A stretch of DNA of 60,573 nt, counting the filler. It is 7 parts of 7 records of this genome, joined end to end, with 100 filler letters (N's around TTAATTAATTAA, not from the genome) between each part and the next. Parts side by side here need not be neighbours in the genome. Positions count along the whole stretch, not along the records: positions 13,773 to 22,037 come from SRR31156797_28401; 6 more parts are not named here. One strand, written 5' to 3'. The notes under the pieces were generated by a model. That model worked only from the letters and a program-made list of their open reading frames with translations, made no database searches and was not told the DNA's origin. Made by a program: the position numbers and the translations under genes. Positions 13,773 to 18,209 of the stretch are shown here, in pieces. The first letter of the stretch is position 1, and every line of letters starts with the position of its first letter.

Positions 13773-14228
13773 TTCTCCCTTCCCGTGGACGACTTCATCG
13801 AATCCGCCTGGTACGGGGACAGACGCAGTTATCTCTATGCCGACGGCGAGAAGGCCCGGTCGGTTCACAACGGCCTCGACCTGGCCGCCGCCACGGGTAC
13901 GGAGATCCGATGTCCCATAGAGGGGAAGGTGGTCATGGCCAAAGAGCGGATCATTACGGGATGGACCGTGGTTCTCGAGCATCTGCCGGGCGTTTACACC
14001 CTCTACTATCATCTGGACCGGATGGACGTGTCTGTCGGAGAAATGCTGAAAACGGGGGACCTTATGGGGACCGTAGGTTCCACCGGGCTGGTGACGGGGC
14101 CCCACCTCCACTGGGAAATGAGGGTGAACACAATTCCTGTTGATCCAAAGCGTTATTTATCCTATCCCCTTATTGACAAAGACGGGATATTGACCATAAT
14201 TAACGGTACTAAAGAACAAGGGAGGTGA
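13773..14228 (+). CDS. M23 family metallopeptidase (5'-truncated)
   Basis: HNGLDLAA (HxxxD), YYHL, GSTGLVTGPHLHWE (HxH). Confidence 0.92.
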   Translation, partial: FSLPVDDFIESAWYGDRRSYLYADGEKARSVHNGLDLAAATGTEIRCPIEGKVVMAKERIITGWTVVLEHLPGVYTLYYHLDRMDVSVGEMLKTGDLMGTVGSTGLVTGPHLHWEMRVNTIPVDPKRYLSYPLIDKDGILTIINGTKEQGR

Positions 14229-14234
14229 TTTCGT

Positions 14235-14435
14235 ATCGCCAACATAAGAATCAGTGATGATGAGCCCCTGGAAAAGGCAATCAAGCGGTTCAAAAGAATG
14301 GTTGAAAAAGAAGGTATTATCCGCGAATGGAAAAAACGCGAATATTATGAGAAGCCTTCCACCATCAAGAATCGTAAAAAGAAAGCCATGATCCGGAAGC
14401 ATGCTAAGAAGCTGCGGAAGACCCAGGGCAGATAA
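14235..14435 (+). CDS. rpsU: 30S ribosomal protein bS21, 66 aa, apparent ATC start; missing from ORF track
   Basis: Translates (M)[76 protein letters not shown] at 14221-14229. Confidence 0.95.
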
Positions 14436-14482
14436 TTGGAATCTTCGCTTCAGGCGGGGTATTCCTCATATCACTTAAAAAC

Positions 14483-14514
14483 AGAGCTCCCATCCAGGGG
14501 GCTCTTTTTGTTTT
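14483..14514 (+). terminator. Rho-independent terminator after rpsU
   Basis: AGAGCTCCC-ATCCA-GGGGGCTCT followed by a T-tract. Confidence 0.8.
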
Positions 14515-14663
14515 CCCTTTTTTCGGCTGAAGAGGGCTGTCCCGAAGGTGGTTCCGGCAGGCTCCGAGGGGGCTGCTTTTTCTCTGGATTACCTCGCCCG
14601 CGGGCGGGTACGGCGGAGGGCTCCGGTCTTTTCGCTACAGCCTTTCCGTGCTACTATGAGCCC

Positions 14664-15101
14664 ATGGTTTTGTGGATACTCTACCTGATGGCGGCAGTTC
14701 TCGTTATCTGTGCCGCGGTTGCGCTCTTTTTTTTCCGGATAAGGAAAAAGAGAGAGTATAAAACCAATCTTCGCCTCAACCAGACCCTGCAGCAGCTGAT
14801 CAGTCAGGATCAGTACGAATACTATCTGGTGGATGTCCGTTCGGAAGGTGAGTTCCGTAAAGGGCATATTCCCACGGCGGTCAACGTTCCCTACGGAGAA
14901 TTGAACTCCTATCTTCCCACGGACGATCTGTTTGCCAACATAGTTGTTTACGGGCGATCTCCCCTTCAGTCTTCCCGGGCTGCGGGTATCCTCAGCGATG
15001 CGGGCTACTTCAACGTCACCAGTTTCGGACCCGTCTTTCGCTGGAGAGGTCCCGTTTCAAGGGGAAACGACACAGGGGAAGATCAGAAAAAAAGCGTCTA
15101 G
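14664..15101 (+). CDS. Membrane-anchored rhodanese-like domain protein (start moved to ATG 14664)
   Basis: N-terminal TM helix, LVDVRSEGEFRKGHIPTAVNVP; the ORF-track extension runs through a terminator. Confidence 0.85.
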   Translation: MVLWILYLMAAVLVICAAVALFFFRIRKKREYKTNLRLNQTLQQLISQDQYEYYLVDVRSEGEFRKGHIPTAVNVPYGELNSYLPTDDLFANIVVYGRSPLQSSRAAGILSDAGYFNVTSFGPVFRWRGPVSRGNDTGEDQKKSV

Positions 15102-15257
15102 TTCGCTGCGTTCCCCCCCTCCCGAGCCTCCTGACGAAACAGTTCTGTCCTCAAGCGCATATATTGATTATATTGATAGGAAAGGCCCTTAGGCCCTATC
15201 CGAAAAAAACCATCAGGGCTCCCGTGAGCGCCCTGGTAGGATATTGGAGTAACTAGT

Positions 15258-18209
15258 ATGCCAGCAATCAAACATCCCGATTCCTATACCCTGATCTCCA
15301 CCGACGATCTGAAGGAGTACAGGGGGAAAGGCCTGCTTTTCGAACATAAGAAGACGGGTTGTCAGATATATCATGTGTTCAACGATGACGAAGAGAACCT
15401 TTTTTCCTTCGCCTTCAGAACCCCTCCCAAGGACAGCACCGGGGTCGCTCATATTCTGGAGCATTCAGTGCTCTGCGGCTCAAAAAACTTTCCTGTCAAG
15501 GATCCCTTCCTTTCCATGATGAAGGGGAGCGTCAACACCTTCCTCAACGCCATGACCTATCCCGACAAGACCCTCTATCCCGCCGCCAGTGTGCTGGAGA
15601 AGGACTTTTTCAACCTTATGGACGTCTATGGCGACGCGGTCTTCTTTCCCCGTCTGAATGAGGAGGTGTTCCGTCAGGAGGGGCATCGCCTGGAGATGGA
15701 CGACGAGGGAAAGCTCGTCCGCACGGGGATCGTCTACAATGAGATGAAGGGGAACTACTCCACCCAGGACGGCATAGCCTATGAATGGTCCATCCGCTCC
15801 CTCTTTCCCGAAGGCCCTTACTCGGTGGACTCGGGGGGAGATCCCGAGGTGATCCCTCAGCTCAGCTACGAGGACTTCATGGCCTTCCATGCGGACTACT
15901 ACCATCCCTCTAACTGCCGGATCTTCCTCTACGGAAACATCCCTTCCCAGCGCTCTCTGGAGTTCCTGGACAGCCGCTTCCTCTCCTCCTTCGCAAGAAG
16001 GGAGGTCTCATCGGCCGTCCCCCTGCAGAAGAGCTGGGACAAACCGAGGATCATGGAGACCGGCTGGCCCCTGGGAGAGTCGGAATCGGAAGAGGGGAAG
16101 AGCACCATCAGTCTGAACTGGAAGATCTTTCCCTACGGCGACGCGGTAAAGACCCTGAGCATGTCCATCCTTTCGGAGATGCTGATGGGCAACGCGGGGG
16201 CGCCCCTTTACAAAGCCATCCTCCAGTCCGGACTGGGTGAGGACCTTTCTCCGGTTAGCGGCGTCGATTTCGATCTTGCGGAGGGGGCCTTTTCCGTGGG
16301 TCTCCGGGGGAGCGATCCCGACAAGGCGGAAGCCTTTCAGAGGCTTGTCTTCCGGACCCTGGAAGAGATCGTAAGCGAGGGATTTGAAGGGGACCTGATG
16401 GAAAGCTGCATGCGCCGGGTGGAATTCCGGGCCCGCGAGATTCAGGGCGGCGGCCCCTTCGGGCTGCGTCTGCTCCGAAAGGTTATGAAGGGCTGGAACT
16501 ACGGACAGAATCCCGGCGATGCCATACGCTTCGACTCTGTGATGAAGGAGCTGAGGGCTCTCGCCGCGGGGAAAGGCTACTTCGAATCCCTCCTGAAGGA
16601 GTGGATCCTGGAGAACCGTCATATGAGCCGGGTCACCGTCAAGCCGGACAAGACCATGGCGCGCCGTCAGGAGGAGGCCCTCCGGAAGGAGCTGGCCGAT
16701 CTGGCCGATGCCATGAGCGACGGGGAGAAAGAGTCTCTGGGAGAGAAAAACAGGGCTCTCAAGGCGTTCCAGGAGGCCGAAGATGAGGGGAGCGTTCCCT
16801 TTCTCTCCACCTCCGATATTCCCCGGCAGGTCAAGAAGCTGACCGTGGATGTGTCCGCCGAAGCCTCCGCCGCGGTTCTGAGTCAGAGGGTCTTCACCAA
16901 CGGTATCCTCTATAACGATATGGCCTTCTCCCTGGGGGATCTCGAGGATGAGCTGTTCCCCTATCTGCCCCTTTTCTGCAAATACATATCCGGTACGGGC
17001 CTGCCCGGCGTTCCCTATGACAAGGTCGCCACCGAACTCGCCCTGAAAACCGGCGGCTTCGGCGTCTCCGTGGAAGCGGGGCACAAGGTGGGAGACCTTC
17101 CCGAGCAGAAGCCCGAGAGCTTTCTCTATCTCCGGATGAAGATGCTGGAGGCCCAGTGCGGGGAGGCCCTGGAGCTGGCGGCCTCGCTGATGAGGAATGC
17201 CGACTTTGATAACCATGAGCGCATGGAACAGATCCTCCTTGAGCTCTGGAACGATCTGAAGTCATCTCTCCTTCCCGGAGGGCACTCCTATGTCATGATA
17301 CGCGGGGGAAGCCGTTTCAGCAGCTCGGCCCGGCGTGAGGACCTTATGTACGGCATCGGGCAGCTCCAGTTCCTGGAGGCTCTCAAGGAGAGGGACGGCC
17401 GTCTGGATGAACTCAGCCGTGTCATGAAATCCCTGCGGCGGAGGATCTTCCGTCTGGATCATCTGACCCTCAGCGTCGTGGGGGACGAGGAGATCCTTGA
17501 GAGGCGGAGCGATGCCCTGCGCGGCTTCTGGCGGGAGAACCTCGGCTCCTCTGCCGATCCCTCCGTTGAGATCTATCTGCCGGGAAACGGGCTTCCCCCG
17601 GCGGCTCCCGCTTTGAAAGAGGCCGAGGGGCTGGGGATAGCCGCCATGGTCGGCTATGTGGGAAAGACCATACGGGGTGCGGACATGGAGAGCGAGGGCT
17701 ATATCAGCGAATCCCTCCTCAGCCAGCTGATGAAGACCGGACCTCTGTGGGAGAAGATCAGGATGAAGGGCGGCGCCTACGGCGCGTTCAGTTCCAATTC
17801 GGGACTGGACAGGACCTTTACCTTCGCCACCTATCGGGATCCCGAGATAGGGGCCTCCCTGGACGCGTTCCGGGAGAGCCTGGAAGAGTTCTCGGGCTTT
17901 GACGATGCCGAGGAACTGGACAAGGCCGTGATCTCGGTAGCCGGAAAGGAGCTGAAGCCCCAGTCTCCTTCGGAGAAGAGCATGATCGCCATGAAACGGC
18001 GGCTCTACAGCATCTCCGACAGCCTCAGGCAACGGAACCGGGACCGCCTCCTGGCCTGCGGATGCGCCGATGTGGCGGGCTGCTCCCGGGAGCTGTTAGG
18101 CCGATGGGACGAGGACGGGGTGACCGTCATGGGTCATCCCGAGCGGCTGGATGAAGCGGCCGACCGATGGCCGGGACTGAAGGATAACCGCATCAATCTT
18201 CCCCAGTAG
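15258..18209 (+). CDS. Insulinase family M16C peptidase (presequence protease-like)
   Basis: TGVAHILEHSVLCGS (HxxEH), FLNAMTYPDKT, GIVYNEMKG, IRMKGGAYG, TYRDP. Confidence 0.95.
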   Translation: MPAIKHPDSYTLISTDDLKEYRGKGLLFEHKKTGCQIYHVFNDDEENLFSFAFRTPPKDSTGVAHILEHSVLCGSKNFPVKDPFLSMMKGSVNTFLNAMTYPDKTLYPAASVLEKDFFNLMDVYGDAVFFPRLNEEVFRQEGHRLEMDDEGKLVRTGIVYNEMKGNYSTQDGIAYEWSIRSLFPEGPYSVDSGGDPEVIPQLSYEDFMAFHADYYHPSNCRIFLYGNIPSQRSLEFLDSRFLSSFARREVSSAVPLQKSWDKPRIMETGWPLGESESEEGKSTISLNWKIFPYGDAVKTLSMSILSEMLMGNAGAPLYKAILQSGLGEDLSPVSGVDFDLAEGAFSVGLRGSDPDKAEAFQRLVFRTLEEIVSEGFEGDLMESCMRRVEFRAREIQGGGPFGLRLLRKVMKGWNYGQNPGDAIRFDSVMKELRALAAGKGYFESLLKEWILENRHMSRVTVKPDKTMARRQEEALRKELADLADAMSDGEKESLGEKNRALKAFQEAEDEGSVPFLSTSDIPRQVKKLTVDVSAEASAAVLSQRVFTNGILYNDMAFSLGDLEDELFPYLPLFCKYISGTGLPGVPYDKVATELALKTGGFGVSVEAGHKVGDLPEQKPESFLYLRMKMLEAQCGEALELAASLMRNADFDNHERMEQILLELWNDLKSSLLPGGHSYVMIRGGSRFSSSARREDLMYGIGQLQFLEALKERDGRLDELSRVMKSLRRRIFRLDHLTLSVVGDEEILERRSDALRGFWRENLGSSADPSVEIYLPGNGLPPAAPALKEAEGLGIAAMVGYVGKTIRGADMESEGYISESLLSQLMKTGPLWEKIRMKGGAYGAFSSNSGLDRTFTFATYRDPEIGASLDAFRESLEEFSGFDDAEELDKAVISVAGKELKPQSPSEKSMIAMKRRLYSISDSLRQRNRDRLLACGCADVAGCSRELLGRWDEDGVTVMGHPERLDEAADRWPGLKDNRINLPQ

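Follow-up and report, generated by a model that had tools for sequence, protein, structure and literature searches.

The window, that is, the whole stretch of DNA analysed here (60,573 bases), is composed of seven unrelated contigs joined by spacers of the form N44-TTAATTAATTAA-N44, and the G+C content ranges from 0.31 to 0.59 across the contigs. Contigs on either side of a spacer are not genomic neighbours, and the genome-scale controls described below were taken from relatives (G001-G005), not from the window's own genome. The second contig (13773-22037, 8,265 bp, G+C 0.572) carries rpsU, the gene of ribosomal protein bS21, just after the 3' part of an M23 peptidase gene. The start region of rpsU reads AAGGGAGGTGAT TTCGT ATC GCC AAC ATA AGA, in which an extended Shine-Dalgarno (SD) sequence is followed by an ATC triplet. 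We conclude that rpsU is very probably translated from this AUC codon at 14235, which the initiator tRNA would read as methionine; we infer initiation with formylmethionine.

The 66-residue product matched the Pfam family Ribosomal_S21 (PF01165) with an E value of 2.8e-19; it scored 69 bits, where the curated cut-off is 27, and the match placed residues 4-56 on positions 2-54 of the 55 profile positions. The best match in the PDB was Borrelia bS21 (8fmw_U, 1.2e-20). Since residues 4-64 align with residues 4-64 of E. coli bS21, the ATC stands at the position of Met1, where the original prediction had placed it. The short S. aureus chain aligned over residues 6-56 only. Judged from these alignments, the window bS21 is of the long form, in which the region of the C-terminal helix is present. 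It has Arg at position 54, and its tail is rich in Lys and Arg.

No canonical codon is available upstream of the ATC. The rpsU frame contains a TGA three codons before it, and this TGA (14226-14228) is the stop codon of the M23 gene, lying in frame inside the GGTGAT of the rpsU SD. The first ATG, GTG or TTG is codon 22, and the sole open reading frame (ORF) with a canonical start in this frame opens there, at ATG 14298. The original prediction of an AUC start behind a strong SD, with the M23 stop inside the SD and no ATG, GTG or TTG before codon 22, was thus borne out by the letters of the locus, by the M23 ORF (13785..14228) and by the relatives, 66 of 79 of which carry ATC, ATA or ATT (hereafter ATH, or AUH in the message) at the same position.

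The possibility of a sequencing error at 14237, for which a check had been proposed, was rejected, as Logan contigs of three runs (X1, possibly the source, and X2 and X4 from other studies) agree on the C and have the same letters at the ATC. In X2 the whole 1,528-base stretch lies in one contig with 10 differences, all of them away from the start site. Record 13 of X4 spans 14194-14408, and its two differences are at 14258 and 14285. The recurrence itself is a side observation: the contig was found again in X2, a run of another study with a coral metagenome label (13773-15300), and partly in X3 and X4. The features of the locus are collected in Table 1.

Table 1. Features at the rpsU locus, in window positions.
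Feature	Position	Strand	Evidence
M23 peptidase gene, 3' part, truncated by the contig start	13773..14228	+	ORF 13785..14228; Pfam Peptidase_M23, E 1.3e-28
Promoter-like TTGACA-16 nt-CATAAT, 11/12 matches	14173..14200	+	Consensus scan, pattern match only
Extended Shine-Dalgarno AAGGGAGGTGAT	14218..14229	+	12 consecutive pairs, one G.U, with the 16S tail
Spacer TTCGT, 5 nt after GAT	14230..14234	+	Sequence unconstrained among relatives
AUC initiation codon of rpsU	14235..14237	+	In-frame TGA upstream, conservation, contigs of three runs, NCBI proteins
rpsU coding sequence, 66 codons and TAA; long-form bS21 with basic C-terminal tail	14235..14435	+	Pfam Ribosomal_S21
Terminator-like hairpin, 9 pairs (6 G-C), then TTTTTGTTTT	14483..14515	+	Consensus scan, pattern match only

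The promoter-like site overlaps the last part of the M23 gene and precedes the SD by about 18 nt; it could be a promoter of rpsU itself, and the consensus scan found one such site against 0.7 expected from shuffled sequences. The terminator-like hairpin begins 48 nt past the rpsU stop codon. On the basis of these two patterns, rpsU may form a short, separate transcription unit.

Conservation of the start site was analyzed in relatives. One genome per species was scanned, and the best 80 of 543 stretches were kept. Because L075 is truncated at the start, 79 readable related loci were left; together with the window they include 67 ATH sites. L075 is a contig end in a bin labelled Flexilinea, and its bS21 is spirochaete-like (74% identity); the contig may be mis-binned. 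The codon at the Met1 position in the 79 loci is ATC in 47, ATA in 17, ATT in 2, ATG in 12 and GTG in 1. The sequence AAGGGRGGTGA(T) stands just upstream in all of the 79 loci. Of the 67 ATH sites, 45 have a spacer of 5 nt from GGTGA to the start, 19 have one of 6 nt and 2 have one of 4 nt, while one site has no GGTGA.

The pattern of variation at the 67 ATH sites locates the beginning of translation. The summed entropies over codons 2-22 are 12.5, 7.6 and 31.2 bits for codon positions 1, 2 and 3, respectively. This coding signature opens at codon 2, the SD is nearly invariant, and positions -1 to -3 between them are free (1.27-1.80 bits). These facts indicate that translation begins at or just before codon 2, where the ATH triplet is the only near-cognate codon. 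The same data bear on the alternative that translation starts elsewhere. A canonical codon is indeed in frame upstream at 46 of the 67 sites, mostly the GTG of the SD motif GGTGAT at codon -3, and this GTG is the start that Prodigal-type gene callers use. At the other 21 sites, however, no ATG, GTG or TTG occurs between the preceding in-frame stop and the ATH, and in the window the frame of the GTG reads TGA. The GTG also falls out of frame, or its frame reads TGA, whenever the spacer gains one base. It lies inside the SD, and there is no room upstream, with a spacer, for an SD of its own. It is because of this loss of frame and lack of room that the GTG cannot be a conserved start. As for a start at Met22, codons 2-21 are conserved as protein. 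A misread base, the third form of the alternative, is at odds with the C confirmed by independent contigs.

Database records reflect both choices of start. NCBI-sourced records (source names ncbi, nr and uniref) include bS21 proteins of 68-69 amino acids that begin at the ATH codon, such as P0002 (Oceanispirochaeta), P0004 (MAHIRINDEE) and a protein beginning MAFVRVDDSE. The first 15 residues of P0004 are those of locus L002, which has ATC with TGA at codon -3. Sources of the Prodigal type hold 72-residue forms that start from the GTG and begin MIxIA. The bS21 of Sediminispirochaeta smaragdinae is present in both forms, as P0014 (72 residues, MIHIAFVRV...) and as P0020 (69 residues, MAFVRV...); P0014, a GenBank protein, has Ile where the ATH codon stands. 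The ATH start is therefore already annotated by NCBI, by homology only, which is an annotation choice and no proof of initiation. Literature searches found no paper that discusses an AUH start of spirochaete rpsU, and text searches within PMC13000457, PMC7797042, PMC9976891 and PMC3353972 gave no mention of it. One practical consequence is that callers of the Prodigal type mis-start rpsU. They choose the GTG within the SD or, if a stop blocks that frame, as it does in the window, potentially Met22.

The SD of rpsU is exceptional in strength. The 16S genes of G001-G005 end in ...GGATCACCTCCTTT, which is canonical and identical in all five. With the 16S 3' tail 5'-AUCACCUCCUUU-3', positions 14218-14229 form 12 pairs in a row, including one G.U, and the last pair is 5 nt short of the ATC. 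A scripted count gave 14 pairs because it also took in two U.G pairs made with the closing GG of helix 45. The original prediction of a strong complement to the 16S tail was correct, and its length of 9 nt was too short. The helix includes a start-proximal extension, GGUGAU, and 12 bp is about the longest SD that the 16S tail allows. The calculated duplex energy is -20.0 kcal/mol for the window rpsU and -22.5 and -23.0 kcal/mol for two Oceanispirochaeta relatives.

For comparison, 160 kb of G002, a close relative, yielded 180 long ORFs, and each was given its best candidate start, a procedure that is biased against the claim. Their SD energies averaged -8.75 kcal/mol (standard deviation 2.65) with a minimum of -16.0 kcal/mol, and none of the 180 reached the value of rpsU. 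Taken together with ATH at 66 of the 79 related loci, this shows that the start feature is beyond chance. The str-S10-spc-alpha cluster of G002, confirmed with Pfam, contains 26 ribosomal-protein genes together with tuf, secY and rpoA; all of them start with ATG, GTG or TTG, and their SDs range from -5 to -14 kcal/mol. The cluster genes of G001, G003, G004 and G005 likewise use canonical starts. Across the five genomes, the rpsU SD is -20.8 to -23.0 kcal/mol versus -11.6 to -14.6 kcal/mol for the best of 26-29 cluster genes. Two cluster genes that seemed to have no canonical start were rejected as exceptions: uL5 in L243 is an artefact of a mis-set reference start, and uL14 in L245 (G001:C11) appears to have a frameshift a few codons past its ATG in a metagenome-assembled genome, probably an assembly error. 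The second bS21 genes found in G001 (L091, G001:C6) and G005 (L092, G005:C1) start with TTG and ATG, respectively, behind an AAGGAG SD of -7.7 kcal/mol.

The strength of the SD is already implicit in a published supplementary table, an independent calculation whose result accords with ours. Among the rows listed for Sediminispirochaeta, Spirochaeta, Sphaerochaeta, Borreliella and Treponema in Table S1 of PMC9976891, S21 is the 'winner' in all seven, at -15.7 to -23.3: Sediminispirochaeta smaragdinae (-18.5), Spirochaeta thermophila (-23.3 and -22.5), Sphaerochaeta globosa (-22.3), S. pleomorpha (-19.9), Borreliella garinii (-18.9) and Treponema denticola (-15.7). It is the 'loser' in the listed rows of Brachyspira hyodysenteriae and Leptospira santarosai. 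The 16S tails given in that table end in ...CCTTTAT for Brachyspira and in ...CCTTTTT for Leptospira. In the main text of the paper the discussion is confined to Bacteroidota.

Two further ideas about the site were examined. In the window (14224-14240), ATC-GCC is complementary to GGUGAU, and the minimum-energy fold contains a 6-bp hairpin with a 5-nt loop, which is possible in most ATC relatives as well. A hairpin in which GGUGA is sequestered by the UCGCY of the start codon and codon 2 is, however, unsupported: its z-score is -0.32, with 69 of 200 shuffled sequences folding as well, and RNAalifold predicts no pairs for 34 sequences, in which 91% of the cells pair without covariation or excess over shuffles. 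A second gene combining such an SD with an AUH start was sought in G002 with the pattern AGGRGGTGAT, which misses rpsU itself because of the G before GGAGG, and none was found among the 26 matches. Seven of the matches are the antisense of the seven 16S 3' ends, and 4 of the other 19 have a candidate start followed by 40 or more open codons. Of four ORFs scanned with Pfam, three matched no family, and the other encodes a periplasmic-binding domain and has its ATG immediately after the motif; the ATA candidate (L218) runs antisense inside an ORF of 529 amino acids.

To assess the phylogenetic spread, the phylum to which G001 belongs was sampled evenly with 111 genomes, of which 110 gave a total of 117 bS21 matches (115 copies, L101-L215, and the two copies of G001). 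If no start codon stood at the expected position, the sequence was followed upstream for up to 8 codons to the first ATG, GTG or TTG. The 115 copies start with ATG (59), TTG (43), GTG (10) or ATC (3), so that with the main copy of G001 the count of ATC is 4 of 117. GGTGA is present in the start region of 64 of the 115 copies, and the SD is -13 kcal/mol or stronger in 74; the mean energies by start codon are -22.1 (ATC), -17.2 (GTG), -14.0 (TTG) and -11.9 kcal/mol (ATG). In ten copies of the sample (L101-L110), a GTG or TTG stands behind GAGAGGGGGTGA in every case. The tabulation of rpsU starts and SD strength that the original prediction had called for thus gave a long SD at every related locus and few ATC starts in the phylum as a whole. 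Its wording 'in spirochaetes' was too broad, as ATH is confined to one large clade.

A FastTree tree of 197 bS21 sequences was calculated with residue 1 removed; with about 65 columns its resolution is weak. A single clade of 92 leaves (support 94) contains all 70 ATH sequences, and none of the 105 sequences outside it has ATH. The fewest changes between ATH and canonical starts on this tree number 5. Canonical starts inside the clade belong to a Sphaerochaeta-like group (12 ATG and 1 GTG), a 7-leaf group (ATG, GTG and TTG) and two paralogs. NCBI names of the ATH loci are Spirochaetaceae (23), Spirochaetales without family (16), Treponemataceae (4), Rectinemataceae (1) and Sediminispirochaetaceae (1), the rest being unnamed. 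Going by these names, the ATH clade takes in Spirochaetaceae, Sediminispirochaetaceae and some Treponemataceae and Rectinemataceae. On this tree the AUH start is thus old and has been maintained in one large clade, and it is not common to all spirochaetes.

The lineages that returned to canonical codons are informative about the SD. Loci that reverted to ATG keep the long SD, with a mean of -20.9 kcal/mol, and in 8 of the 12 the GGTGA lies 7-10 nt from the start, versus 5-6 nt in ATH sites. Loci with ATG and a long SD include L025, L028, L029, L031, L050, L059, L062 and L078. Because the ATG revertants keep the SD and 64 of the 115 phylum copies carry GGTGA, the long SD is not a mere compensation for the AUH codon. 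What selection seems to have kept is a site that captures the subunit strongly and yet has an inefficient codon or spacing. The AUC with its very strong SD is a conserved feature that only the main rpsU copy has and that none of the other ribosomal-protein genes checked shares, and we therefore take it for a start site selected for regulation. Our observations cover the start codon and its conservation, the exceptional strength of the SD and this specificity.

We propose that such a start site could tie the synthesis of bS21 to ribosomal subunits that lack bS21, by a feedback that acts through the long SD and the AUC; our analysis gives this a rough probability of 0.4-0.45. Three elements would have to be added to the observations, namely steric competition with bS21, gating by initiation factor 3 (IF3) and the feedback loop as such. 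At this start site a codon of the weakest class is combined with a near-maximal SD. The long SD would capture 30S subunits firmly, and conversion to an elongating ribosome at the AUC would be slow, with IF3 exerting a veto on mature, bS21-replete subunits. There, the start-proximal end of the SD-antiSD helix and the C-terminal helix of bS21 would also get in each other's way. Subunits without bS21, a late-assembling protein, might form the full helix and escape the proofreading by IF3 more easily. They would then translate rpsU preferentially, the new bS21 would complete them, and synthesis would drop. We favour this feedback because the spirochaete bS21 is of the long form, because the conserved GGUGAU extension is start-proximal, and because of published systems. 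A stricter version, a double lock that only unfinished subunits could open, in which a 12-bp helix needs the space of the bS21 C-terminal helix and the AUH codon is vetoed by IF3, seems to us rather unlikely.

In F. johnsoniae, the 13-bp SD-antiSD helix of rpsU clashes with the C-terminal helix of bS21, and bS21 is missing from the complexes (PMC13000457); bS21-poor ribosomes translate rpsU better or faster (PMC13000457, PMC9976891). The spirochaete case resembles this Bacteroidota autoregulation (PMC7797042, PMC9976891, PMC13000457) in that the same gene has by far the strongest SD of the ribosomal-protein genes. In each of the five genomes the rpsU SD is the strongest among these genes and below -13 kcal/mol, as in the Bacteroidota type. 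The number of pairs is 12 in the spirochaete versus 9-13 in Bacteroidota, and the product adjoins the helix in both. In Bacteroidota, however, rpsU has an AUG start and the genomes are otherwise without SDs, the anti-SD being hidden by bS21, bS18 and bS6, whereas the spirochaete gene starts with AUH in genomes that use other SDs. The spirochaete bS21 also has Arg instead of Tyr at position 54 and a basic tail, unlike the Bacteroidia signature. Sequestration of the anti-SD as in Bacteroidota, with Tyr54, a less basic C-terminus and a genome without SDs, was thus not found. Unlike in Bacteroidota, the spirochaete helix is extended start-proximally and ends 5 nt from the start.

In E. coli, infC starts with AUU and is autoregulated by IF3. 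The rpsU start resembles infC (AUU in E. coli; AUA in S. aureus, PMC13009471) in having a conserved AUH codon, the class that IF3 rejects, on a gene of the translation machinery. The product of infC is, however, the discriminator itself, whereas that of rpsU is a ribosomal protein. We therefore rejected rpsU as a member of the infC type of autoregulation, since the gene does not encode the discriminating factor; a similar sensitivity to IF3 is possible. In the infC genes of G001-G005 (L086-L090) a conserved TTG-GCN preceded by GGAG(G) appears to be the start, instead of AUU or AUA, and the classic AUH-based loop of IF3 seems to be absent in these five relatives.

A further likeness is to S. 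aureus, in which cvfC1, ccpN, infC and citZ have AUU or AUA starts and extended start-proximal SDs and give about 10% of the expression from AUG (PMC13009471). As in cvfC1 (AUU), ccpN (AUA) and citZ (AUA), where the combination is conserved among relatives, rpsU has no usable canonical start, an AUH conserved in orthologues and a start-proximal SD at suitable spacing. These three S. aureus genes are unrelated to the ribosome, whereas rpsU is ribosomal, and the bS21 of Firmicutes is a short form that is missing from the helix region of the reported structure, whereas the spirochaete bS21 is of the long form. According to the same authors, a long bS21 of the E. coli type would sterically hinder the extended helix (PMC13009471). 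A further element is provided by immature E. coli 30S subunits (rbfA and ksgA deletions), which bind IF3 poorly, evade it and initiate at AUA, CUG and AGG (PMC6868393). The rpsU case is a variant of two known themes, AUH starts licensed by extended SDs and control of rpsU through an extreme SD.

Several facts weigh against the feedback. In most initiation complexes of solved structure, bS21 is not expelled, and the SD helix passes between its two helices (PMC13000457). The window bS21 lacks Tyr54 and the less basic C-terminus that mark the anti-SD-sequestering proteins of Bacteroidia (PMC7797042); for this comparison the numbering was assumed to be equal because Ser42 coincides. Other genes of these genomes use SDs, so the anti-SD is not generally hidden and the logic of Flavobacterium cannot apply unchanged. 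Lineages have reverted to ATG, GTG or TTG at least about five times, from which it follows that the AUH is dispensable. Coupling may contribute at the 22 of 67 ATH sites where the preceding gene has its stop codon within the SD. Finally, the 16S tails are identical in all five genomes and offer no variation in which covariation between SD and anti-SD could be seen.

In S. aureus, moreover, AUH starts with long SDs occur on genes unrelated to the ribosome (PMC13009471), so static damping would be enough to explain the pair. The AUC would then set a low, fixed rate of initiation for a small protein needed at one copy per ribosome, and the long SD would only make the weak codon usable and fix the frame, as proposed for cvfC1 and ccpN. 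We regard such an attenuation without feedback as possible, though short of probable. It agrees with the output of about one-tenth from the four S. aureus starts, with the joint occurrence of AUH and a long SD at all of the 67 ATH sites and with the existence of revertant lineages. A weak SD with AUG would, however, be a simpler route to low output. The long SD persists in lineages with ATG, GTG and TTG, hence it should have a role of its own, and it is the strongest of all genes sampled in five genomes, on the gene of the one protein that sits beside the SD helix. The paralogous bS21 copies have neither feature.

A sensor of IF3 is the next alternative, in which the AUH start would turn the synthesis of bS21 into a readout of free IF3 (and so of growth rate, cold or the balance of ribosomes to IF3), with no role for the occupancy of bS21, much as the AUU does in E. 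coli infC. IF3 discriminates against AUH, as the autoregulation of infC (PMC13009471) and the rescue of misinitiation by IF3 (PMC6868393) attest, and with infC of the five relatives at a conserved UUG, rpsU would be a prominent IF3-sensitive message. Neither the extension of the SD toward the side of bS21 nor the placement on rpsU rather than on the paralogs is explained in this way, and we consider a sensor of this kind improbable.

Termination-reinitiation would dispense with free 30S initiation on a weak codon, since ribosomes that end the M23 gene at the TGA in the SD could restart 6 nt downstream at the AUC. The window and 21 other ATH loci have a long ORF on the same strand that stops within 15 nt of the start, mostly at the TGA of GGTGA. 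The gene that stops within the rpsU SD is often an ORF of 320-385 codons. At the other 45 ATH sites, however, the upstream ORF ends more than 15 nt away (more than 60 nt in 18 of them), and the SD is conserved regardless of where that ORF ends. In the window, most of the M23 gene is separated from the SD by the promoter-like site. We consider reinitiation very improbable. Least credible of all, and already contradicted at the window locus, is a true start elsewhere, at the GTG in the SD or at Met22, or an ATG misread as ATC.

Ribosomal-protein genes are textbook cases of efficient canonical starts. A conserved AUH codon together with the strongest SD of the genome suggests that the supply of bS21 is under special translational control well outside Bacteroidota, the only group in which such control of bS21 has been shown. 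If the double lock exists, bS21 would be made on demand by the subunits that lack it, and the AUH codon would be a sensor of the state of ribosome assembly. The autoregulation of rpsU discussed in terms of 'specialised ribosomes' would thereby be carried from the SD-blind Bacteroidota into ordinary bacteria that use SDs. If confirmed, the proposed feedback would join three separate phenomena, the exclusion of bS21 by long SD helices, the licensing of AUH starts by extended SDs and the escape of immature subunits from IF3, and rpsU would provide a natural reporter of the state of ribosome assembly.

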